Shown here: in pieces, positions 10,783 to 56,845 of the stretch
How the letters are laid out: each line of letters opens with the position of its first letter
Numbering within the stretch: the stretch's first letter is position 1
Assembly: GCF_000372725.1 (NCBI RefSeq)
Contig: NW_005201392.1
Span: 1,121,184 to 1,185,183 of the forward strand
DNA: 64,000 bases
Direction: 5' to 3'
Source: Emiliania huxleyi CCMP1516
Taxonomy: Eukaryota
Notes under the pieces: generated by a model
What the model saw: only the letters and a program-made list of their open reading frames with translations
Database searches by the model: none
Told to the model about the DNA's origin: nothing
Position numbers and translations under genes: made by a program

Positions 10783-13337
10783 ATGGCGGACGCGGAGCTC
10801 AACGACGACGACCTTGTCGATTACGAGGAGGTGAGCGGCGCCCACGCCACAGCGGGCGGCCCTACGCCGCGCCTCGGAAGGCGGCGAGTCGCCATCGCGC
10901 GCGCCCTTCGCGCGCGCCACCTCCCCCCCCGCCAAATAGCCGCCGCCCTCGACCCGCTGCGCGCCCTGCGCGCGCGCCTGTAGGAGGAGGCTGAGGAGAC
11001 CAAGCCGCAAGAGGAAGTCAAGAAGTGAGTCGCTGCACGCAATCTATCTCGGGATACCGCCCTCCACAAGCGGCACGTCGCTGTCGCCGCGTGGCCACCG
11101 GAGTCTTAGACGACGTCTCCACTCTCTCGCTGCCACGCGCTGGCGTCCATCGCGCCTTGCAAGCCCCTCCCCCGAGCGCGCGCGCGCGCGCGCCGTTCAC
11201 CGCGTGCCCCACCGCCCCGCCTGCCTGCCGCCGCCGCCTCCTCCTCCTCCCCGCCGCCGCCGCTCCGCCCCTGGCCGCGCGGCCGCCGCCGCCCACGCAC
11301 AACGCCCGCCGAGGGCCTCTGCGCGCGAGAAAGAGATCTCTCTCCCGTACGTGCGGCCGTCGTCAGCCGGTCCGTCGTCAGCGGGTCTCGATCTGCCGGC
11401 GGCGGGCGGACGGCGGACCCTCCGGAGGCGGGCCGCAGCGACGGCGGCGCGCTCGATTACCCCCACCACCGCTCTGCGCTCGGGCTCCTTGGGGCCGATG
11501 CTCCTCCTCCTGCTCCGCCTCTCGTCCTCCAAAATACGCTTTGGGGGCGCGGGGCGCGTGGCTCTGCTGATCGGCGTTCCTGCGCTCCGGCTCCTCCTCC
11601 TTCACTCAGGGGCGGCACCTACTCTGGCATCCACGCCTCCGGCTTCCGCGACTTTCTGCTCAAGCCCGAGCTGCTGCGCGCCGTCGTCGACTGCGGCTTC
11701 GAGCACCCCTCCGAAGTGCAGCACGAGTGCATCCCGCAGGCGCGCGCCTCCCCCCGCCCGCCCCGCCACCCCCTCCACCGCCTCCCCGCTTTCCGCCGCC
11801 GCCGCTGTGGTCCCCCCTCCCCCCTCCCCCGGCACCGGGTTCCGGCCCTACACACTCCCGTGGCGGCAGCCTACTGACCCTCCCTGTGCGCCGCCTCCCC
11901 CTAGGCCATCCTCGGCATGGACGTGATCTGCCAGGCCAAGTCGGGCATGGGCAAGACGGCCGTGTTCGTGCTCGCGACGCTCCACCAGCTGGAGGCCAAG
12001 GAGAACACCGTCTGCTGTCTCGGTGCGCCGTAGCCCACGCCCGCCACCCCCGTCCCCCCCGTCCCCCCTCCCAAGCTCCACGCGCACGGCGCACCCGCCG
12101 ACCTCGTCCGCGACCCCTCCGCAGTCCTCTGCCATGCGCGCGAGCTCGCGTACCAGATCTGCAACGAGTTCGAGCGCTTCTCGCGCTACTTGCCCGACGT
12201 CAAGACTAAGGCCACCCCCCTCCCCCCCCTCCCCCGCATCCCCTTCTCTCACCACNNNNNNNNNNNNNNNNNNNNNNNNNNNNNNNNNNNNNNNNNNNNN
12301 NNNNNNNNNNNNNNNNNNNNNNNNNNNNNNNNNNNNNNNNNNNNNNNNNNNNNNNNNNNNNNNNNNNNNNNNNNNNNNNNNNNNCTCCTTCCTCCCGCTC
12401 CCGCTCTCACTGCCCCCCCCCCCCCTCCCTCCCCTCCCTACCACCGCAGGTGATGATGTTCTCCGCCACCCTCTCGACGGACATGCGCGCCGTCTGCAAG
12501 AAGTTCATGCAGGACCCGATGGAGATCTACGTCGACGACTCCAAGCTGACGCTGCACGGCCTGCAGCAGCACTACGTCAAGCTCGCCGAGAACGAGAAGA
12601 ACCGAAAGCTCAATGAGCTCCTCGACGCGCTCGAGTTCAACCAGGCGCCAAGCCAGCGGCGTTCCCGCCCCCCCTCCCCTCCCGCTTGTCCCGCCAGCCC
12701 CACCGCTGCCGCCTCGCGCCGCCGCCCGCCGCCGCCGGCTCTCGCCCCGCCGGATCGACCGCAAGCGGCGACCCCCCTCCCCCACCTCTGTCTCAGGTGG
12801 TAGTCTTCGTCAAGTCCGTCTCGCGGGCGAACGCGCTCGACAAGCTGCTGCAGGAGTGCAACTTCCCGTCGGTGGCCATCCACGGGTCGATGAAGCAGGA
12901 GGAGCGCATCAAGCTCTACCAAAACTTCAAGGACTTCAAGCACCGCATCCTCGTCTCGACCGACATCTGGGGCCGCGGCATCGACATCGAGCGGGTCAAC
13001 ATCGTCGTCAACTACGACATGCCCGACTCGTCGGACACCTACCTGCACCGCGTCGGCCGCGCGGGCCGCTTCGGCACAAAGGGCCTCGCGATCACCTTCG
13101 CCTCCACCGACGAGGACGCGAAGATCCTCGAGGACGTGCAGTCGCGCTTCGAGGCTTGCCGCCGCCCCCCCCCCCCCGCCGCCCTCGCCGCCCTCCCCCG
13201 CCGCTCACCTCGTTGCCACCCCTCACCTCGTTGCCCTCGCTGCCACCCCTCACCTCGCCTTCGCCGCCCCTCCCCCTCAGGTGTCCATCACGCAGCTGCC
13301 AGAGACGATCGACGTCACCTCCTACATGACCGCATGA
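10783..13337 (+). CDS. UAP56: DEAD/DECD-box RNA helicase UAP56/SUB2/DDX39 (multi-exon; motif II region lost in gap 12256-12384)
   Basis: [122 protein letters not shown]. Confidence 0.97.
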
Positions 13338-14102
13338 GCCCTGTTAATCTCCGCGCGCGCACACAGCGCACGCCCTGCGCGCCTCGCGCCGCCGAGAAAC
13401 GTGTGCGTTCCGGCGGCGGTCGGGCGGGCGATCTACCGGGAGGGCGGACGCGCTGTGTGGGGGGCGACACGTCCCCGGAGGAGCCGCGCTCGCTGCGACA
13501 CCTCAAGAGTGAGCCGTGTGTTTGTGTTCTGCGAGGGCGGGCGCTTCTTTTTGCGTAATGTCTGTTTTCGTATATATTGTGGGTTATATACGGTGACGCG
13601 GTGTGTCTTTGTGTGTCGTGTGTGAGACAGTCTGAGTCTCCCGCGTCCCGGACGCCGGACAAGGCGGCTGCGCCGGGCTCCCACGCACCTCGGTCCTCGC
13701 ACCTCGCACGGCGTGTGAGGTGTGTGTACTCTGTACACACCGCGCAGATCACAGTGTAAAGAGTACGTGCGTGGCGACAGAGCTAAAGTTTTCCCCCTCT
13801 ACGTATACGATGCTCTGATCTGGCTCTGATAGTCTAAAGCCACACGAGCTACGACGTACGAGAGCGTCGAGAGCCGCGCAGGGCCGATGCGAGCATGCTC
13901 CATGCACTTGCAGGTGCGCGAGTCCCTAGGCGAGTCCGGTCTCGGCGGGCACACTCCGGACTCCAGGGTGTGCGGTCGGACCGGTCGGAGTCTGCATCCG
14001 CACGCCGACTTCGACTCCACGCGGTCGCGCGGACTCCGCTCTCCGGAAACCAGACGAAACCCAGACGGCGGCTAGTCATCTCGTCGCTTGCGGGTCGACC
14101 GG

Positions 14103-35241: not shown

Positions 35242-36935
35242 CTACCTCGCCAGCCGCTTCTTTGCATAGTCGTTGACGGAGAAGCCGATCGCCGACTGCA
35301 GCGGCCCCTTGAGCAGCGCGAGCGAGAGGCCCTTGAAGAGCCCGTTCGCGACGCCCTCCGCCGCGTAGATGGAGCGCAGCGCGTGCGCCACGCCGTGGTA
35401 CCCGCCGCCGCCCACCCCGACCTGCATCCGCCGCCGCACCACCGTGAGCGGATAGGTGACGGTCTGGGCGATCGCGCCGGCGGCGCCGCCCGCGAGCAGC
35501 CGCTGCGTCCCCGTCAGCGGCGGCAGTGGGTCGTCTGCAGTGCCGCCTGCGGAGGCGCGCAGTCGGGCACGGGCTTGCAAGCCGGTGTGGGGGAGGGACA
35601 AGGCGTGGGCCTCTGAGGTGTAGTGGGCCGAGGAGGAGGAGGGTACGGCCGAGCCTCGAGGCGCAAAACTCGGCTATCTCTCGGCTGTCTCTCGGCTGTC
35701 TCTCGGCTGTCTCTCGGCCTGCTCTGGTGCGGGAGGAGTCCCTCAGGTGGGCCTTGAGCGTCTCAAAGGCGGAGAAAGAGAGCCCCGAGTACGGCACGAT
35801 CCCGAGGATGGTTGGGCGGAGGCCGGCGTACAGCCCGCGCGGGCCCTCGCTCCTGCGCCACGAGCACACCAGCGTCAGGGCGAGGAGTGCGGCCTCGTGC
35901 CGTGTAGTCGGAGCCTCGCGTGAGTACAAGGGCCACGAAGGCAAGCCGAGTGCAGCCGAGTCCGAGTCCTCGCGAGCGCGTGTGAGTACACGGGTGGGTA
36001 CTAGGGGTGGGCTCCTCCAGAGGTGGCGTACGCCGCTCATGTACCTGGCGGCGGAGTGGGCGGGAGATGGCGGCGGTGAGGCTAGGCGGAGGGCGGTGGT
36101 GAGGGCGAGGGCAGAGGCGAGGGCGAGGTGGAGAGCGGCGGTGACGGCAAGGCAGACGGCGGTGGCGAGGGCGAGGTGGAGGGAGGGCAACGTTGAGGGC
36201 GGTGGTGAGCGCGAGAAGTTGGCGGGCTGGTGTGTGCGGGCGGCGCAGATCTGTGGCGGCGCCGGCGTGAGGCGGCGCTGTCGACCTTCCGCGTATGCGT
36301 CCTTCGACTGTCCGTGTGCGATCTGCGCCCCGGGGTTGCGCTGTTGTGAGGCGGGCGCTGGCGCACCCGTGGTGGTGCGAGCGAGAGTCGGCGGCAAGGC
36401 GGGCGCGCATCACGTCGAGCGGGTAGGTGAGGAAGGTGGCGGTGGCCCCCGCCGCCGAGCCCGCCACCAGCCGCGACCAGACCGACCCTCCGCTCGCGGC
36501 GCCAGACGTGACGCCCGACGCCTTGAGAACGGCGTCCTCGTACATGGCGTACGAAGCAAACACTATGGAGGCGTAGGGCACGTCCCGCGCGACCGCAGCG
36601 GAGTTCCCTCGCCAGAGCGCCAGCACTCCGGACTGGAGCACAATGCTGCTCGCCGTCGAGAAGCCGCGCCGCAGAGTAAAGGCATGGCGCGGGTCCGTGT
36701 TGACTTGGTAGATAATCTTAATGCGGTCGATTGGAGCGGTGAGCAGCTTCGACACGCCGCCAGAGATGGCTCCCGCGGCCAGCAGCGTCGACGTCTTTGA
36801 CGGCCCTTCGTCGGGCATCAGCACTGGACCGTGATGGCTGGCGTCAACCCGGTCAGAGACGCGGTGGATAAGCTTCTCGGTCGAGACGCGTCGCAACTTC
36901 TCGCGTCTCTCCTGCTCCACCATCGCGGGGAGCAT
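35242..36935 (-). CDS. Mitochondrial carrier protein, SLC25A42/CoA-carrier-like (multi-exon)
   Basis: Three carrier repeats: TAPIDRIKIIYQ...ALWRGNSA, TYPLDVMRARLA...GLYAGLRPTILGIVPYSG, TYPLTVVRRRMQ...GLFKGLSL..LKGP. Confidence 0.9.
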
Positions 36936-37046: not shown

Positions 37047-38138
37047 CTAGGAGCCGTCCGAGTCCGAGTTGTACGCACCCAATAGGTTGAGCCCGCCCGA
37101 CGGGGGCGCTGGCTGCACCAGGCCCGAAAAGTTGTAGTCGGGTGCCGCCTCCGTCGGCGGCAACGGCGGGGGAGGGCGCGCCGCCGCGGGCCTGGAGCGA
37201 GAGGCGACGAACTCGAGCGCCGCGGCCTTGCGCTGCAGCAGCTCCTGCGCTCGAGCCACGGCGCGCGCGGTGCCGGAGAGGGTCGCGACGCCGCCCTGCA
37301 GCAGCACCTGCGCGCCCGAGTCGGCCTGCAGCTGGGAGACGCCGGCGCGGCGCTTCGCCGTGAGGGACGCCGTGAGGGCGGGCGAGAGGGGCACGGTCGC
37401 CGAGACGGCGGTCGCGGCAGTCGGCCTCTCCCAGCTCGAGGTTTGCGTCGGCGAGTGGAAGTAGTACGCGTACCCCTCGGGAGATGTGCCCTCCACCCAC
37501 CCCTCTGGCAGCGGCGGTGGCGCGGCCTCGTCGTGCGCCGCTGGGTCGGGGCCGTCAGCGTAGTAGCCGACCCCTTGCTCGCCCGCCTTGAAGACGTAGC
37601 CAGGCCGTGCGCCCGCAAACGTTGCCGCCGCCTCGAACCGCGGAGCGCCGAAAGGCGGAAGGCGGAAGGCGGCGGCGCCGTTTGCGCTCCCTGCGCCGCT
37701 CGTCGCCGCCGCCGCGGCGGCGGCCTCCCTCGCGAAGCGCGCGGTCGCCGCCGCGAGCCGATCCGAGTGAATCCGTGCATACGTGCGCGCGGCGTCGTCG
37801 ACGTGGACAGAGATCACGCCGAGGTCGAGGAGCTCCTCCGGAACGAGGTGGTGCTTCCCGAGGTCGCCCGGCCAGCCAGTCACTGTCGAGCGGCCCGGCG
37901 GCTCCTTGAAGACCTGGCCTCCGGTCCGAAGCTTCTCCGACAGGAAGCGGAGCGCACCGCGCCGCCACACTGTGTGCAGACGGTGCTGCTCCCGCTGGCC
38001 GTAGCCTTCGCCGCCGCCCTCGACGAGGTCGGCGCGGTCGTGATCGTTGCCGTAAAGGAGCTTCCGCTTCTTGGAGAAGACGTGCGCCGAGTCCGAGCCC
38101 TGGCGCTTGTCCCATGGGCCGGGCTCGAAGAGGCTCAT
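37047..38138 (-). CDS. WW + KH-like domain protein (single exon)
   Basis: LPEGWVEGTSPEGYAYYFHSPTQTSSWERP (WW); SLTAKRRAGVSQLQADSGAQV..ATLSGT..AVARA (degenerate KH); FAGARPGYVFKAGEQGVGYYAD motif. Confidence 0.8.
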   Translation of the reverse strand: MSLFEPGPWDKRQGSDSAHVFSKKRKLLYGNDHDRADLVEGGGEGYGQREQHRLHTVWRRGALRFLSEKLRTGGQVFKEPPGRSTVTGWPGDLGKHHLVPEELLDLGVISVHVDDAARTYARIHSDRLAAATARFAREAAAAAAATSGAGSANGAAAFRLPPFGAPRFEAAATFAGARPGYVFKAGEQGVGYYADGPDPAAHDEAAPPPLPEGWVEGTSPEGYAYYFHSPTQTSSWERPTAATAVSATVPLSPALTASLTAKRRAGVSQLQADSGAQVLLQGGVATLSGTARAVARAQELLQRKAAALEFVASRSRPAAARPPPPLPPTEAAPDYNFSGLVQPAPPSGGLNLLGAYNSDSDGS

Positions 38139-38433
38139 GAAAGCGACTCTGAAAGCACCTCGGCGTGCGCGATCGCGCTTACTTCCTCCACACCCCAGTC
38201 AGTGCCCAAATCCACACTTTTCAATGTACTTTTAGCTTACTGGGAGAAAAGGGAGAGGGGGTTGTGTTCTCTAGGCCCCTAAGGGCCCTACGCGCGGCGT
38301 GAGAGCTCGGAAGCGAGCTTTGCAGGGCGATCGCGAGGATGGCGCGGTCGGTTCACCCCCTTCACCGAAGCGATGGAGATGCGTTCCGCGTGGTGTGACA
38401 CAAATGAGAGGCGGGAGTGGGGAGGGTACGCGC

Positions 38434-43193: not shown

Positions 43194-43288
43194 TGATAGA
43201 GGGCAAAAAGATCGATTGCGCTCTTGCCGATCCGCACCTACCTAGGCTCTTGGGTGGCGCGCCCCAGCTCTTCACAACGAACCTGGTT
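43194..43288 (+). repeat. 95 bp dispersed repeat (second copy 55933-56027)
   Basis: TGATAGAGGGCAAAAAGATCGATTGCGCTCTTGCCGATCCG...CTTCACAACGAA(C/A)CTGGTT, one mismatch between copies. Confidence 0.9.
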
Positions 43289-43390
43289 GTCGGACGAGGT
43301 GCTCTCACCTGCTCACACAACCCTGCTCCCTCTTCCGGCTGTCGTGGCACCAGCCGTGCACTTCTGCAAAATCAAAACACACACCGTGCA

Positions 43391-44600
43391 ATGCGCAAAG
43401 TACTCTTCCAGCCGGACTACTTCATGAGCCCGCAGTTCGCGGGCCTCGCCGTGGCGCTTCGCACCGGGAGGTGCGTCTCGGCCTCAACCACTCCTCCACC
43501 TCTGTCTCCCACCCGTCGCCGCGACCTCCGGCAGGTACGCTCGCCGCGGCATCGAGCTGGACATCCTCCCTCTGGGCGGCGCCGGCGAGCGTGCCGAGGA
43601 GGTCTCAATCGTGGCGCGTGCCAAGGCTGACTCTCCCCTGCTCGTCGGCTCGACCGAGCAGTACATCCTGACCCAGGCCCTCCGCGACGGCACGCCCGGC
43701 GAGAGCGGGGTCCGCGCGGTCGCCGCCATGTTCGGCCGCTCGCCGCTAGCCCTGGCGGCGCTGCCCGGCCGCGAGCTGACAGGGCTCACGCAGGCCGCAG
43801 CCGAAGAGCTGCGCGTCGGCGTGCACGAGGACACGGTGGGCCTGGTCTCGCGGCTGCTGCCCTCCGCGGTGGTCGTGCCGGTCGGGCGGGACGACAAGAT
43901 GGAGCTCCTCCGCAGCGGTCAGATCGACGCGGCACAGGCGCGGCGTGTCTTCAGTCGAGACGGAGCCGGGCGCGCGTATCTCGCGCCAATCTCGCGCATG
44001 CGCCTCGCAGGTGTACGACGTGACCGAGACGCTGAAGATGGAGGCGGACCTGGGGGCCGCGCCCGCCCTCCTCCCACTCGAGGGCCTCGGAGGCGCGCGG
44101 CTCGGTTACGCGCAAGTCCTCTTTGCGGCGCACGCGCAGCTGCGTGAGCAGGACCAAGTCGCAACGCTGCAGGCGGTCCTCGCCCCCTCCCCCTCCCCCT
44201 CCCCCTCCCCCTCCCCGACGCGTCCCACCCGCCTCCAACGCCAGGACTTCCTCGCTGCAACCTTCGACGGGTGGGCGGCCGCGAAGAGCGACCCGCGCGC
44301 CGCCGCCGATGCGGTGATGGCCTTGATGGCAAACCAGCCCGCGCCTTCGGACCACTGGGACCACTCCCTCCCCTTCCACCAAGCGTCGGTGCGGCCGCTC
44401 GGACGGGGCAGCCGCCGAGGGTGCTCGCTCGACCCTGCCCCAAAGACGCGCCTCCTCCTCCTCCCTCCAAGGTCGAGCGCTGCTGGGACTATGTCCGGCG
44501 GGCGCGATGCGCCGGCAAGCTGGGCGCGATCGACGGGCGGCGCTGGGCCGAGGCGACGGAGTGGCTCGGCGGCAGCGGCGGCGTGCAGTCGCTGGATCCC
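43391..44600 (+). CDS. NMT1/THI5-like (periplasmic-binding fold) domain; N-terminal part of a fusion gene
   Basis: MRKVLFQPDYFMSPQFAGLAVALRTG|RYARRGIELDILP, VGSTEQ..L, VRAVAAMFGRSPLAL, LRSGQIDAAQ|VYDVTE, YAQVLFA, FLAATFDGW..A..DP..AA. Confidence 0.7.
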
Positions 44601-47390
44601 GCCGTGTGGACGTCGGACCCGCTGCTAGGGGACGGAGACTCGCTGGCCGCCTCCATCCTCGACAAGGCGCGAGGAGGGGGGGGGGGGGGGGCCTTTCTTT
44701 TTTCTTCTCCATTTTTCCTTCCCTCTTCCCTCTTCCCTTTCCTTTCTTTCCTCTTGTTTCCCCCGCTCCTTTCTCCCTTTGTTTTTTTCACTTGCCTTCC
44801 CCTTCTTCCCCCCTCCGTTCTCTCTTTTTTTTTTCTCTCCCTTCTTTTTTTTCCTCCTCTTTCCCCCCGCTTTTTTTTTGCTCCTTTTTTTTTTTTCTCT
44901 TCTTCCTTTTCCTTTCTCTCCGTCCAATGCACCGGTTAGCAGTTTTTTTTTCNNNNNNNNNNNNNNNNNNNNNNNNNNNNNNNNNNNNNNNNNNNNNNNN
45001 NNNNNNNNNNNNNNNNNNNNNNNNNNNNNNNNNNNNNNNNNNNNNNNNNNNNCATGGGAAAAGCTCCAGGGGCTTGGACTAAGCCCACCTCTTCTCCAAG
45101 AAGCGGAAGAGTGCTTTGAGGCAACGATCACGACCGCGCCGACCTTCTCCACTCCGGCGGCGAAGGCTACGGCCCCCGGGAGCACCACCATATGCTCACA
45201 GTGTCGCGCGGGGTGGAGGGGGCGCGTGGCTGGGAGGGTCCACCCGCCACCGCCACACCCCGCCACCCCGCCAGCCTCTGCTCACCCCTCCCCGGCCCCT
45301 CCTTGCGCACTGCGCTCAGGTGGCTGCAAAGGCAGCCGCCGTCCGCAGCGAGCGAGGCCAGCCCCCTCGCCTCGGCCTCGTCACTGTCGGCGAGCCTTCC
45401 TAGACACGTCCCAGACCCTACCTCGCCTCGGCCTCGTCACTGGCGGAGAAGGGGGGGGGGGGTCGCAAGGAACCAACTCGGAACCTTCCTGGAGCTGCCC
45501 CTGCAGGAGAGCTTGCCGAGGGGCACACCAGCGCTGGCGCTTCCTCGCGCGAGGCCATCGCACCGGCGAGATATAGCCGAGATATAGCCGAGATATAGCC
45601 GAGATATAGCCACCGTTCCGCACATCCACGACGCGTTCCCGCCCGCCGCCAGGCGGGCTATATCTCGGCTATATCTCGGCCATATCTCGGCTACATCTCG
45701 GCTACATCTCGGCTACATCTCGGCGAGATCTCCCCGCCTGGCGGCAGGCGGGCCAGAGCTGGTTCAACAAGGCGGGCCTTCTCGCTAGTGGAGCAGCTGA
45801 CTGGCTCACTCTCGCTCACTCGCCGCGGAGCGTCGCAACACAGGCGGCGGCCGGAGAGAAGCACGGCGTCCTCGTCGAGGAGCTCGACTTGCCGTACTCC
45901 ACCGCCACGCCCGACCTCCTCGCCGCCCTCGCCGCCCTTTCCCGCCGCTGCGACGGCGAGCCCTTCCGATGCGAAGACTCGCCTCCGCCGGGGCCTCCTC
46001 CAAGCCCCCCCCCCCCCCGCGCAGGCATCCAGCTGATGTGGCCTCTCCCCGCCCACGTCGACGCCGTCGCTGCCTACGGGGCGGTGCCGCCCCACCTGGA
46101 CGTCGACGGCGAGACCTAGCCGCGACCTAGCCTCGCCCAGACCTTAGCCTCGCCCAGACCTTAGCCTCGCCCAGACCTAGCGCCCACGCCTGGCGCCTCC
46201 CCCCCCCTGACCCCCACCCCCACCCTGACCCCGCCCCCCCAACCCTGACCCCCCCACCCCACCCCACCCTGACCCCGCCCTCCAGGCGCGCACTTCGTCT
46301 CGCGCTCCGAGTACAGCGGCTCAGATCTCCCCAGATCTCCCCATACCTCCCCACATCTCGCGCTCCGAGTAAGCGAACCGCTCCTGTGGTCTCCCCATAC
46401 CCCCCCCCCCCCTTCTCTCTCCCCGCAGGTACAATGGCGGCTCTTGCGTCGGCCGCACGAGCCGCGACCCTCGTCCGGGCCTGCGCGGCTGCCTGCCGGT
46501 CACTCCAGAGGGGGGGAGGGGGTTGGGGGGCGGTGCCGCGCGACTCTTCACACGTCTGCCTGCGAGCAGGTCACCCCCGAGGCCGTGCTGCAGCTGCTGC
46601 AGCAGCGAGGCGTCGCCCTCGCGGGAAGCCACGCGCTCGTCATCGGCCGCTCTCGCATCGTCGGCAGCCCGCTCGCGGCGGCGCTCCTCGCCGCAGACGC
46701 GACGGTGAGCGTGGCGCACAGCCGCACCAAGGGCCTCGCCTCCCTCTGCCGCTCCGCCGACGTGATTGTCTCGTGCGCCGGCTACCCTGGGCTGGTGCGC
46801 GGCGCGTGGGTCAAGGATGGCGCAGCCGTGGTGAGCGTCGGCACCACCTTCGCGGGCGAGCGTCTCCTCTCCGACCTCGAGGAAGCCGAGAGATGGCCGA
46901 GAGATGGCCGAGAGATGGTCGAGAGATCGCCGAGAGGGAGCCGAGAGGGAGCCGAGAGGGAGCCGAGAGATGGCGAGCGCCTCCTCTCCGAGGAAAGCGC
47001 GCAGCGGAGACGCAGCCGAGGCGAGCCGAGATGTGGCCGAGATGAGCCCCCGACATCGGTGTACGTTACTGTCAACGGCGTAGCCTTGCCCGGTTCGGCC
47101 TGGAGAGCAGCTCAGGCCCCCCTTTAGAATACGGGCCCCCCCCCCCCCCCTCTCCCACTCCCCCCCCCCACACACACACACCTTTCCCACCTCTCCCGCA
47201 GGAGGACTTGGAGGCCTTCCGCCACGCCGGCCTCGCCGCCGCCTCGCTTGTGGGACATGTCTCGCACGTGACCGTGGACGTGTCCCCGACATGTCCGAAG
47301 GCCTCGTCGTCACGTCGCCCGGCGGGGTGGGGCCCCTCTCGCTCGCGCTCCTCCTCCGCAACGTCGCCGACTCCGCCGCCCGCCGAGCGA
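44601..47390 (+). CDS. folD: FolD-like (methylene-THF dehydrogenase/cyclohydrolase) domains, many short exons; part of a fusion gene
   Basis: LLGDGDSLAASILDK|VAAK..PRLGLVTVG, SWFNK|AAAGEKHGV, GIQLMWPLPAHVD, HLDVDG.H, VTPEAVLQLL, VIGRSRIVGSPLA, DATVSVAHSRT, ADVIVSCAG, PGGVGPLSLALLLRN. Confidence 0.85.
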
Positions 47391-47997
47391 GCGACGGTGC
47401 AGTCGGAGGCGCCGACGAGCGCACCCCGCCCGCGAGCGCCGCCGCCGTCGACGCCTTCCTGCGCGCGAACAAGCACTGGGCGATGCTGCCCAAGCGCGGC
47501 GACGGACCCGGGCCGTCCGCGCAGAGGGCGCTAGTGCGCGAGGTGCGCGTGCCGTCGCACCGCGCGGCCGCCGACTTGCTCGATGCGGCGGCGGAGCTCG
47601 GCGGCCGGCTCTCGTCCACGAGCCGTTTCCCCCCGCAGGACCCGTCCACGAACCATCCTCTCGGCACCTTTTTGCAGGCGACCGGCTCGACCACCACGTC
47701 GCCCTCAGCGCCGTCGAGCATCGCTGCGAGGCAACTGCTAACTAGCTGCAAATGAACTGCTCATATGAACTGCTAATCAACCACGAGTCACCGCTGCGAG
47801 GCCTATTCACACCTCCTATTCACGCCTCCTATTCACGCCTCCTATTCACGCCTCCTATTCACCGCTGCGAGGCCGGGGTGCAGCTCACGCTCCACGCCTA
47901 CACCACCTCCACCGGCGACGTCACCGCCCACGACCTCGCGCTCGCCGCCGAGATCGAGCAGCTCTGCGAGCGCCCTTTTGTGCGGCAGCAGCTCTGA
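47391..47997 (+). CDS. Pterin-4a-carbinolamine dehydratase-like domain, in frame with FolD
   Basis: FL...KHW...ALVREVRVPSHRAAADLLDAAAEL|GDRLDHH...YTTSTGDVTAHDLALAAEIE. Confidence 0.7.
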
Positions 47998-50121
47998 GCC
48001 TGCGTAAGTCCCCCCGCACTTCGCCGCCGCCGCCGCCCGGCATCGGCGAGCTCTCCACGGAGCGCTTCCGGTGCGAGCCGCCAGACACGCTCGGGTCGAG
48101 TCCTGGCCACGCTCACCCCAACCCCCACCCCTCCCCCCCCCCCCAACCTCCGGCGCCAGGTACGCCCTGCCCGCCTCCCTCATCGCGTCGCACCCGGCAG
48201 AGCCGCGCGGCTCCTCGCGCCTCCTCCTGCACCTGCCAGCGCGTGCCGCCGCACCGCGCCTCGCCGACGAGGTGCGCGGCGGCGCGGAGCGGCGGGTGGC
48301 CGGCCGAGGGGGCGGCGGCGGCCTGCTTCCGTCGGGCGGTTGTGCCGTCGACTTGGCGTTCGCCGACCTGCCGGCGCTGCTGCCACGCGGCGCGCCTCTC
48401 CTCGCGCCAGTCCCGAGGGCGTCCGGCCCGTCGGCACGCCCACGACGCAGCGTGCCGGCCGCACGCCCCGCAGGCGCGCACCTCGTCTTCAACCAGTCGC
48501 GCGTCTTTGCCGCGCGGGTGCACGCCTCGCTGCTCGGTGCGGGAGCGGGGAGGGGCACGCCCGCGGAGGAGGCCGCCGCCCGCGCCGTCGAGGTGCTCTT
48601 CCTCGCGCCGCTCTCGCACGCCGACCCGAGCGGCGCCCTCTCGAGCCCCGCGCCGGGGCAGCTGTGGCGCGCCATGGCGCGAGAGGTAGCCGAGAGAGAA
48701 GCCGAGGTGTAGCCGGGGTGAAGCCGAGGTGTAGCCGAGAGGTGTAGCCGAGAGGTGTAGCCGAGAGGTGTAGCCGAGAGGTGTAGCCGAGAGGTGTAGC
48801 CGAGAGGTGTAGCCGAGAGGTGTAGCCGAGAGGTGTAGCCGAGAGGTGTCGAGAGGTAGCCGAGGCGACCTCTCCTCGACACGTCCACGACATGTCCATG
48901 GCAGGTGCGTGCGCCGCTCGAGGTGAGCGGCGCGCGGCTCACAGTCGCGCCGCCGGGCGCCGCGGCCTCGCTCGATCTCGAGGTGGAGGCGGTCCTCGCC
49001 CCTTGGATCGAGCAGGGCGAGCGGGACGGAGTCGAGGCTGCCGTGCGGCTGTCGCTGCCTCCGGACAGCCACCCCGCCACCCCGTCGCCGCCGCTCTCGT
49101 CGCTGCCGCTCTCATCGCTGCCGCTCTCGTCGCTGCTCGGCTTGCTCGGAGAGACGCCGCTGCCGCCGTACCTCCAGCGCGAGGCGACGCCGCAGGACGA
49201 GGAGAGCTACCAGACCGTGTACGCACAGAGCGAGCAGACGGGCTCCGTCGCCGCGCCGACGGCCGGCCTGCACTTCACCGAGCCGTTGCTCGAGGAGTTG
49301 CGCGCGCGCGGCGTGTGCAGCTCCTCGCTGACACTGCATGTCGGCGCCGGTGCCTTCCGAGCACGCGGCGGCGGACGCCCCGCCGCTCGCTCTTCCACCC
49401 CCCCCCCCCCCCTTCCCTCCCCACCTCACAGGAACCTTCAAGCCGGTGACGGCGCCAACCCTGGCGGGGCACGACATGCACGCAGAGCCCTTCTCCATCA
49501 GGTGCAGGCTATAGCTCGGCTCAATCTCGGCTGCCTCTCGGCCGTCCTCACGCCCCCGAGCCCTTCTCCACCAGCGCGGACGCGCTCGGCGCGCTCGCCC
49601 TGTCCGCGGCGGAGGGCCGCCCGATCGTGCCGGTCGGGACGACGAGCGTGCGCGTGCTCGAGTCCGCCTACTGGCTCGCCGCCAGAGCCGCGCCCGACCC
49701 CAAACCCAGCGGCGCTACACTCGACGGCGCCTCGCAGCGCGCAGCGCCGCTCTGCTCACACGCCTCGCCCGCGCGAGTAGGCGATTTGGGCCGCCTCGGG
49801 CAGTGGGACGCATACAACTTGTCCGCCGCCGCGCCGCCCCCGTCCCGCCTCGAGGCGCTGACGACTCTGCACGGGCTAGCCGAGGCGGCGGGCGGCCGCC
49901 TCTACGGCGCGACTTCGCTGTGCATCGCGCCGGGCTACCGGTTCGCCCTCTGCGACGGGATGGTGACCAACTTCCACGCGCCCGACTCGACGCTGATGCT
50001 GCTCGTCTCGGCCCTCCTCGGCGGGGCCGACAACGCCCGCGAGGTGTACGAGCACGCCGTCCGCCGCGAGTACCGATTCCTCTCGTACGGCGACTCGTCT
50101 CTCCTCCTGCGCGCGCGTTGA
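47992..50121 (+). CDS. queA: S-adenosylmethionine:tRNA ribosyltransferase-isomerase (QueA), multi-exon, no own ATG
   Basis: [127 protein letters not shown]. Confidence 0.93.
48690..48862. repeat. Intronic 13 bp tandem repeat (GCCGAGAGGTGTA)n
   Basis: About 10 perfect units plus degenerate flanking units inside a QueA intron. Confidence 0.95.
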
Positions 50122-50345
50122 TGCTCTCGAAATCGCATGCGCGAGAGAGGTGCCCTCGCATTCGATCTTTTCCATGCGACAACAAGCGGAGAGCCGCGCT
50201 GCGGTTGTGCGCCGGAGACTCACAGTACACAGACTCAACGAAGGAGAAAGAAGGCTTGTTAGAAGGGCGGCGTACGGGGAACGGGGTGTGGAGGGTGAGT
50301 ACTGAGTTGGGACCAGGATTCGACCCCTTTTTACGGGGTAACTTA

Positions 50346-55932: not shown

Positions 55933-56027
55933 TGATAGAGGGCAAAAAGATCGATTGCGCTCTTGCCGATCCGCACCTACCTAGGCTCTTGGGTGGCGCG
56001 CCCCAGCTCTTCACAACGAAACTGGTT
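55933..56027 (+). repeat. 95 bp dispersed repeat, copy 2
   Basis: Matches 43194-43288. Confidence 0.9.
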
Positions 56028-56044
56028 ACCTCCCCAACCCACCG

Positions 56045-56845
56045 ATGATAGGCCACGCACTCCGGCACGCCGCTGCAGCGTGCTTTCTGCTGCCGCTGCT
56101 GCTAACTCTCCTCTTGACGAGCCCAGAGCAGCTATCTGCCATTAACGACACCGATCGTGCTGCCGTTGCGCTCTTCAACTACATCGGCGACGCCTCCTTC
56201 GCATTGACTGGCGCGCTTGCCGCGGGCGAGGAGGGAATGGATCTCATGGGCTGCCTTGTCGTCGGCTTCGTCACAGCGCTCGGAGGCGGCACCTTTCGAG
56301 ACATTGTGCTCGGGCGGACACCAGTCTTCTGGCTCACCGCGTGGGACGAGGCCGCACTAGCGCCCATGGTGAGCGGCCTCGCTTTTTTCTGCTGGCCGGC
56401 CGTTGCCCGCCGGTTGCGCTTGACCACTGAGGACGAGTGGCTCTTCTGGACCGACACCGTCGGGCTCGGCGCATTTGCGGCGAACGGCGCCTACGTCGGG
56501 AGCAGCGTCAGCCCTCGGAGCCCGCACGTCGGCGGCGCGGCGCTGTGTGGCATGTTCACCGCCACCTTTGGCGGCCTGACACGCGACGTCCTCCTCCGCC
56601 GCCCCGTGCGGATCCTGCACTCGCACGCCGAGATCTACGCCGCGCCGGCCCTCCTCGGCGGTGCCGCGACCGCCCTCTGGCTCTCGGCGGCCCCGACGCA
56701 GGTCGAGCAGGCGCTGCTCCTAGGCCTGTGGCTGACGATACAGGTGCGGGTGCTCGCTCTCAACCGCGGTCTCGCGCTGCCAACCTTCGCCGCCCGGGGT
56801 ACGAGCACTCTTCCGCTCTCACCAGCGCCGTACGACTCTGCTTAA
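56045..56845 (+). CDS. TRIC/UPF0126 (YadS-like, glycine-transporter family) membrane protein, intronless
   Basis: IGDASFALTGAL.A...MDL.G.LVVGFVTALGGGTFRD.VLG..PVFW; DTVGLGAFA..G; TATFGGLTRDVL....P.IL...EIYA. Confidence 0.9.
   Translation: MIGHALRHAAAACFLLPLLLTLLLTSPEQLSAINDTDRAAVALFNYIGDASFALTGALAAGEEGMDLMGCLVVGFVTALGGGTFRDIVLGRTPVFWLTAWDEAALAPMVSGLAFFCWPAVARRLRLTTEDEWLFWTDTVGLGAFAANGAYVGSSVSPRSPHVGGAALCGMFTATFGGLTRDVLLRRPVRILHSHAEIYAAPALLGGAATALWLSAAPTQVEQALLLGLWLTIQVRVLALNRGLALPTFAARGTSTLPLSPAPYDSA

Follow-up and report, generated by a model that had tools for sequence, protein, structure and literature searches.

A conserved QueA reading frame lies out of frame behind an NMT1-FolD-PCD fusion at an Emiliania huxleyi locus

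A transcribed locus of the alga Emiliania huxleyi CCMP1516 (contig NW_005201392.1), within the 64,000-nucleotide (nt) stretch of DNA that we analyzed (hereafter the window, to which all positions refer), encodes NMT1-like, FolD-like, PCD-like and QueA domains in that order. Assembled RNA from this locus encodes a three-domain protein followed by an out-of-frame QueA, so that any four-domain chain would have to be minor, arising by recoding or rare splicing. The best reading of the sequences is that NMT1-FolD-PCD-QueA represents a real protein family, a eukaryotic preQ1-salvage fusion family that has been split at this locus. We tentatively favor, at a little short of even confidence, a model in which the spliced RNA encodes a 748-amino-acid (aa) protein plus an intact, probably translated QueA in the −1 frame, reached most likely through ribosome slippage at C CCU UUU. 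Pfam and fold comparisons bear out the plus-strand domain order and the ATG at 43391 put forward by an earlier sequence-only reading, whereas the single four-domain polypeptide it proposed is not confirmed, in view of an intervening stop codon, the −1 offset of QueA and the recorded 748-aa product.

One mRNA likely spans all four domains. The stretch was covered by 14 of the 17 listed runs; four runs from four studies (one recorded as RNA, three presumed RNA) were examined, and spliced joints occurred in all of them. In three runs (X1, X8, and X11), one contig each of 3,937–4,048 nt extended from the first exons to about 50,310–50,341, and the fourth run contributed three pieces, one of which bridged the PCD-QueA junction. 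Fifteen of 29 splice joints were read directly, with the remaining introns inferred from record offsets and transcript-derived proteins; the resulting 23-exon model agreed with the X8 offsets at 7/7 checked points. Its introns comprise 14 GC-AG, 7 GT-AG, and 1 GA-AG (n = 22; the GA-AG intron spans 46882–47201), with G at donor position −1 in 21/22. The FolD start motif shares exon 44472–44666 with the end of the NMT1-like domain, and FolD continues in frame into the PCD-like domain within exon 47301–47600, both as previously described. Pfam matches to FolD, PCD, and QueA were each obtained within single exons. A misjoin at the assembly gap, raised earlier as a possible artefact, is ruled out, as the gap is intronic and 44666 is spliced to 45320 in 4/4 runs.

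Translation from the ATG yields 748 aa, ending at TGA 47995–47997, and the segment containing this stop (47872–48070) is retained in spliced RNA. The same protein was independently recorded on 6 and 14 contigs (P0166 and P0220, respectively). The QueA frame, offset by −1, runs for 167 codons before its first in-frame ATG at 48674, consistent with the earlier observation that QueA lacks a start of its own. A simple in-frame fusion at this locus is therefore excluded by the TGA and the −1 offset. No frame-joining form occurred among the 15 listed of 22 QueA-cluster members, and no spliced form joining the frames in 6/6 members of the 748-aa cluster or in the four runs. UniRef assigns one QueA-cluster member to Emiliania huxleyi. 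The expectation of transcripts spanning the locus thus held for single contigs in three of four runs, but not for QueA in the same frame. Five transcriptome records of 973 aa reach QueA through a shadow frame starting at 44507; we rejected this frame as a real product, as its upstream part is junk sequence and it is stopped in a divergent allele. A QueA start at Met 48674 was likewise rejected, as it would discard 13 conserved columns. P0121, which follows the shadow frame, and P0223, which follows the upstream frame, are consistent with one divergent allele (26 changes in 681 nt) that keeps both the TGA and the Pro-Phe before it. Because this allele carries a −1-frame stop where P0121 ends, the frame change is confined to 47970–47994. 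The break accounts for junk or truncated gene-caller models at this locus. In a Prymnesium parvum gene model (P0004), QueA is preceded by ~200 residues of junk sequence and lacks a convincing start, and the same junction problem may exist there.

Despite lying out of frame, QueA is under purifying selection and not decaying, as judged from sequence comparison. It matched Pfam PF02547 over model positions 2–322 (E 7e-83 on P0002), and alignment to 1yy3 (E 2e-51) and 1vky recovered all main motifs. All 86 columns conserved among 59 relatives are retained (86/86, with one further column set aside as an alignment-edge artefact), 13 of them preceding the first ATG; for comparison, the upstream 748-aa frame retains 135/143. 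QueA scored below the NCBIfam equivalog cut-offs (286 vs 324 and 241 vs 267), as did the four other eukaryote-type QueA proteins tested. In the divergent allele, 227 upstream codons contain 13 synonymous and 12 non-synonymous codon changes, yet only 6/325 QueA residues differ in P0123 (from the same transcript as P0121), compared with ~52 expected under neutrality at the upstream synonymous rate, and no stop or frameshift interrupts the 325 codons. All five transcript-derived 973-aa records differing upstream (5/5) show no QueA change, and across the four runs the part 5′ of the first ATG varies by three synonymous changes and one conservative change. This conservation suggests that QueA is likely still translated. 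Record P0001, whose C-terminal half is this QueA and whose N-terminal half derives from another QueA, is probably an assembly chimera.

The heptamer C CCU UUU is the sole in-register slippery heptamer in 1,247 codons, lies 15 nt before the stop, and falls within the permitted 25-nt interval. Its codons are rare in the upstream frame (CCT 7/41, TTT 2/14). Base composition places the old frame break downstream of the heptamer (posterior 0.01 for 47980 or earlier), and for this reason the heptamer is not merely the scar of a slipped run. Slippage would yield 1,248 aa with a 47-aa PCD-QueA linker, similar to the 37–47 aa of four sister-clade fusions. Leaky scanning to QueA is unlikely because 15 upstream AUGs precede it. 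We envisage that the ancestor was an in-frame NMT1-FolD-PCD-QueA fusion, often with QueH, that a one-base change near 47981–48009 broke the ancestral frame, and that a fraction of ribosomes now shifts by −1 at the heptamer to produce the 1,248-aa chain, which would supply QueA as a minor product.

Several observations weigh against slippage. Programmed −1 shifts are rare in nuclear genes. No hairpin downstream of the heptamer exceeded shuffled sequences (z-scores −0.6 to 0.8), nor did any stimulatory structure 5–9 nt 3′ of it; the best H-type pseudoknot was equalled by 71,000 of 97,710 shuffles, and the junction RNA had no Rfam match, whether to a riboswitch or to any known RNA. When codons were shuffled without altering the amino acids, a heptamer arose at this position in 11% of shuffles; the site was read in E. 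huxleyi only. A metagenome scan for relatives' junctions found one family member among 80 loci, which ended before the junction (bacterial FolD dominated the hits); the viral contigs searched held no relative, and an overlap test of relatives' PCD ends against QueA starts gave no compatible pair. The contigs, from one set of four runs with 15 of 29 joints read directly, may fuse overlapping transcripts and lose rare isoforms. QueA divergence was measured at the residue level only, with recombination between alleles as a loophole. The West Nile virus frameshift site requires a pseudoknot, according to the accessible part of PMC11507841.

The main rival, which we consider unlikely, is a minor splice isoform that joins the frames while the retained form gives the 748-aa protein. 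Enumeration identified three candidate splices, all in frame: a GC donor after 47984 joined to the normal acceptor at 48160 (1,219 aa), and a GT donor after 47979 joined to 48051 or 48063 (1,224 or 1,220 aa). With a score of 3.1, the 47984 donor falls within the range of true donors; the 47980 donor reads GTGCGG, resembling true GT donors, and 71 nt is the commonest intron size. Segment 47998–48048 scores −3.6 in composition, which is intron-like (true introns range from −5.9 to 1.5, and the 5th percentile of coding sequence is −0.5). Removal of 47980–48050 would leave a linker of 23 aa, the length found in six diatom-type rows; both points also count against slippage. However, no such form appeared in the cluster members and runs described above. 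The internal candidates score −1.6 and 3.9, below 21/22 true introns, and 16/43 control windows match such a score, which is chance level. The 47984 route would also delete a conserved Phe two residues ahead of the QueA Tyr.

It is improbable that QueA is a separate chain initiated at a near-cognate codon (CUG 47994, overlapping the stop, or CUG/UUG 48000), whether through reinitiation or on a shorter transcript. The two codons do share the QueA frame and precede all conserved motifs, and the close haptophyte-like relatives P0003 and P0005 have QueA with its own Met. Against this, position 48000 alternates between CUG and UUG, eukaryotic ribosomes reinitiate inefficiently once they have translated a long frame, and the contigs, although unable to reveal a second start, show no hint of one. 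Distinctly improbable is a recently silenced relic, in which the fusion is broken, translation yields nothing beyond the 748-aa protein, and a different QueA-QueH gene takes over: a second clade of QueA-QueH does exist in haptophytes (Chrysochromulina parva P0290) and the family has often undergone fission (5 changes), but the scarcity of QueA changes, the uninterrupted divergent allele and the invariant 973-aa records oppose it, and it needs recombination between alleles to account for the low QueA change. With an intact, out-of-frame enzyme under selection, the locus is a testable candidate either for −1 frameshifting, which is rare in nuclear genes, or for intron retention that is nearly complete.

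Table 1. Features of the locus, in window positions.
Feature	Position	Strand	Remarks
Transcribed unit	43277..50341	+	23 exons, 22 introns, ~4,080 nt spliced; single contigs in runs X1, X8, X11
NMT1/ThiY-like solute-binding domain, aa 1–310	43391..44612	+	exons 1–5; Pfam PF09084 on P0166
FolD-like NAD(P)-binding oxidoreductase domain, aa 312–620	44616..47392	+	Pfam E 1e-31; alignment to 4a5o
Assembly gap	44953..45052	.	inside intron 5 (44667–45319); joint 44664 to 45318 in 4/4 runs
PCD-like domain, aa 632–742	47426..47976	+	family-invariant HH, HxC, G, D: 53/53 rows at each position
−1-frame codon that is a stop in the divergent allele	47967..47969	+	P0121 ends here
Candidate −1 frameshift site, the in-register slippery heptamer C CCT TTT	47973..47979	+	sits in overlap of two frames
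QueA reading frame, −1 to upstream frame	47979..50121	+	exons 17–23
Retained segment with weak splice-like sites	47980..48062	+	splicing from donors after 47979 and 47984 would bring QueA into frame; no spliced form seen
Stop codon (TGA) ending the 748-aa NMT1-FolD-PCD frame	47995..47997	+	identical C-terminus in P0166, P0220–P0224

Homologues are fused elsewhere, which removes the concern that the architecture is peculiar to this locus. Among 337 cluster representatives, 40 have all four domains in one frame: 36 NMT1-FolD-PCD-QueA (12 with partial QueA) and 4 that add QueH. Other architectures include 17 QueA-QueH, 19 three-domain, and 33 two-domain rows, some short ones probably being cut at introns. 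Fusions were found in diatoms and dinoflagellates (named sources are Pyrodinium, Polarella glacialis, Pseudo-nitzschia multistriata, and Amphora coffeaeformis), and QueA-QueH is present in C. parva. Diatom-type members carry Arg-rich, acid-poor presequences; E. huxleyi and dinoflagellate-type proteins have none. In a QueA tree of 49 rows chosen from hits, with most bacterial-length rows omitted, eukaryote-type rows separated from ten bacterial-length rows (support 100/99), and E. huxleyi QueA fell into one group with four in-frame fusions and four rows lacking a fusion (99/97). A single clade of fused rows was rejected (approximately unbiased test, p-AU 0.0007), and an ancestral fusion that split repeatedly fits best. 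UniRef names some fusions after the PCD domain, and databases list them under single-domain names.

Two further observations concern this family. The stand-alone haptophyte-like QueA of P0005 and P0257 begins, at residues 2–22, with a decayed NMT1 N-terminus (14/21 identical in P0005), as if derived from a fusion by internal deletion. Several of the QueA-QueH fusions (P0010, P0013, P0018, P0290, and 13 more) bear mitochondrial-like presequences and may form a second queuosine-finishing route in haptophyte-like algae.

The three-domain core was modelled with 74 sequences as one compact unit (predicted local distance difference test (pLDDT) 91, predicted template modelling score (pTM) 0.87); an earlier model with 9 sequences was poor (pTM 0.42), and its Foldseek list contained FolD only. 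The predicted NMT1-like domain is nearer to ThiY (3ix1, Z 29.2) and the C. difficile thiamine-binding protein (4nmy, Z 28.2) than to THI5 (4h65, Z 23.2), and in the ESM Atlas it matched NMT1 clusters at 0.97, with only weak FolD leads for the remainder. It begins at residue 2 without a signal or N-terminal presequence and is fused to enzymes, in place of the export signal and partner expected of a ThiY-type ATP-binding cassette (ABC) solute-binding protein. The region that we take to hold the pyridoxal phosphate-binding Lys and substrate His of THI5 reads EQN in the family. The predicted PCD-like domain matched 2ebb (Z 14.2, root-mean-square deviation (rmsd) 1.7) and keeps the His-His pair in 53/53 rows together with an extra invariant His-x-Cys; where the downstream catalytic His and aromatic residue would presumably lie, the region has Thr, Ser, Phe, or Tyr.

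The FolD-like part has the expected predicted fold (Z 31.6), but its active site is not that of a canonical FolD. The catalytic Gln98 column is replaced in 72/72 family rows (Met 66, Ala 4, other 2; Met in this protein), and the Tyr50 equivalent is Trp in the core. The Lys of the site is kept in 66/71 rows, compared with an intact Y-x3-K in 10/10 canonical FolD hits. The substrate Asp (Asp444, equivalent to Asp121) is present in 72/72 rows, and the NADP-binding GRS, HS, and GGVGP motifs are kept. Family-specific features include invariant Arg366, Ser375, Trp376, and Trp422 and an insertion at the folate-tail site, and the domain scores far below every NCBIfam FolD cut-off. In E. coli FolD, K54N has no cyclohydrolase activity, and Q98H has about 1% of it while keeping 8% dehydrogenase activity (PMC5688156, accessible part). 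Because Gln98 and Tyr50 are replaced, these mutants suggest that this non-canonical FolD has likely lost cyclohydrolase activity. In this family the active site of a FolD fold has been rebuilt, and its substrate is amenable to assay.

Known members of the NMT1, FolD, and PCD folds bind 2-aminopyrimidine-type rings, and preQ1 has such a ring. By analogy, the likely ligand of the core is a heterocycle of the pterin or deazaguanine type, which it would reduce or oxidize with NADP(H), and we infer a heterocycle-capturing NADP(H) oxidoreductase that would feed or tidy a QueA-QueH route. Given bacterial preQ1, QueA with a putative QueH or QueG encoded elsewhere would finish queuosine on tRNA. A preQ1-to-queuosine role is supported because QueH is linked to the fusions, which upholds the preQ1-salvage half of the earlier proposal; nothing supported its other half, vitamin sensing. 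QueA-less cores are common (the two- and three-domain rows above, some cut by introns), which weighs against our functional reading, since the core need not serve queuosine. A rather unlikely but real contender, on function only, is an ordinary one-carbon or pterin-recycling enzyme (a methylene-tetrahydrofolate dehydrogenase without cyclohydrolase) to which QueA was fused for shared targeting and expression. The retained Asp and NADP-binding motifs, the residual dehydrogenase activity of E. coli Q98H, the cores without QueA and the Arg-rich diatom presequences are all compatible with it, but the family-specific invariant residues and folate-tail insertion, the wide miss of FolD cut-offs and the tight predicted packing against the binding domain are not what it predicts.

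To our knowledge, the textbook view is that eukaryotes take only queuine from bacteria. A bolder combined proposal, which we regard as doubtful, is that an enzyme of up to five domains, common to diatoms, dinoflagellates, and haptophytes, captures a bacterially released compound of the deazaguanine or pterin type, converts it via the repurposed FolD and finishes queuosine with QueA and QueH, and that in Emiliania a programmed −1 frameshift sets the QueA-bearing share. A QueA-QueH-bearing fusion across major phytoplankton groups would make preQ1 a traded ocean micronutrient.

The NMT1-like domain shares conserved residues with unstudied bacterial binding proteins. In 6/55 loci, these relatives lie near 8-oxoguanine-, PRK12393-, or PRK07583-type deaminases, families that we take to include pterin deaminases. 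The accessible part of a deaminase review (PMC13197243) does not name these models. A bacterial operon as the source of the fusion was rejected: the 55 loci (34 of at least 9 kb; only the exported subgroup was scanned) held no queA, queH, folD, or PCD gene, and 79 FolD loci held no partner gene. Exported NMT1-like proteins at L093, L104, L112–L116, L127, and L128 adjoin TonB receptors and nucleobase/pterin-type deaminases, a candidate system for uptake and breakdown of a heterocycle in marine bacteria.

Elsewhere in the window, an identical 33-nt stretch occurs at 43249–43281, just 5′ of the gene, and at 55988–56020, where a further long open frame begins. Many RNA contigs match the first copy, and the stretch is therefore likely a dispersed repeat. 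The translation of part of intron 5 (45053–45220) resembles 37050–38198 on the minus strand, likely another repeat family. Neighboring frames presumably encode, from their translations, a GSK3-like kinase (2000–2566, −), a DEAD-box helicase (12617–13555, +), a mitochondrial carrier (35245–35673, −), and a small membrane protein (55985–56842, +), none of them queuosine-related.

The fusion family is apparently undescribed so far: our literature search, with subscription papers mostly outside it, returned no description of the four-domain fusion or its junction. Eukaryotic QueA itself is no longer without precedent, having already been reported (PMC12301720, as far as its text is accessible). 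In the accessible portions of these sources, eukaryotic TGT accepts preQ1 derivatives (PMC9561289), a survey of transporter fusions leaves NMT1 and THI5 unmentioned (PMC11130926), and a diatom NMT1 knock-out paper concerns signal-peptide proteins (10.1101/2022.01.04.474978).

Each part of the system has known counterparts. The algal QueA has the main motifs of bacterial QueA (PF02547; B. subtilis 1yy3, T. maritima 1vky), and its nearest named bacterial hits are Bacteroidota. Unlike bacterial QueA, it is nuclear and intron-rich, has no start codon of its own, contains longer insertions and falls below NCBIfam cut-offs, and its relatives are fused to three other domains or to QueH. The binding domain resembles ThiY, the C. 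difficile protein, and THI5 in fold, but with ≤18% identity, its own conserved motifs, no export signal and a fusion to enzymes. The FolD-like part retains the FolD/MTHFD fold, Asp, and NADP-binding and GGVGP motifs, whereas Gln98 is lost, Tyr50 has become Trp, Lys is incompletely kept and an insertion is family-specific. The PCD-like part shares the PCD/DCoH fold and His-His pair but adds the invariant His-x-Cys, and the downstream His that we take to be catalytic is not conserved. At the junction, the heptamer C CCU UUU and its register are shared with the West Nile virus −1 frameshift, but here the heptamer lies in a cellular nuclear mRNA with no pseudoknot or significant hairpin detected (PMC11507841, accessible part). 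The closest parallel for a bacterial-type QueA in a eukaryotic alga is Chloropicon, for which mitochondrial BL-TGT, QueA, QueG, and YhhQ were reported in 2025 and preQ1 salvage was proposed (PMC12301720, accessible part). There, QueA is encoded by a separate gene alongside QueG and is nearest to red algae, whereas the family described here comprises multi-domain fusions with QueH, is nearest to Bacteroidota and has no presequence in E. huxleyi.

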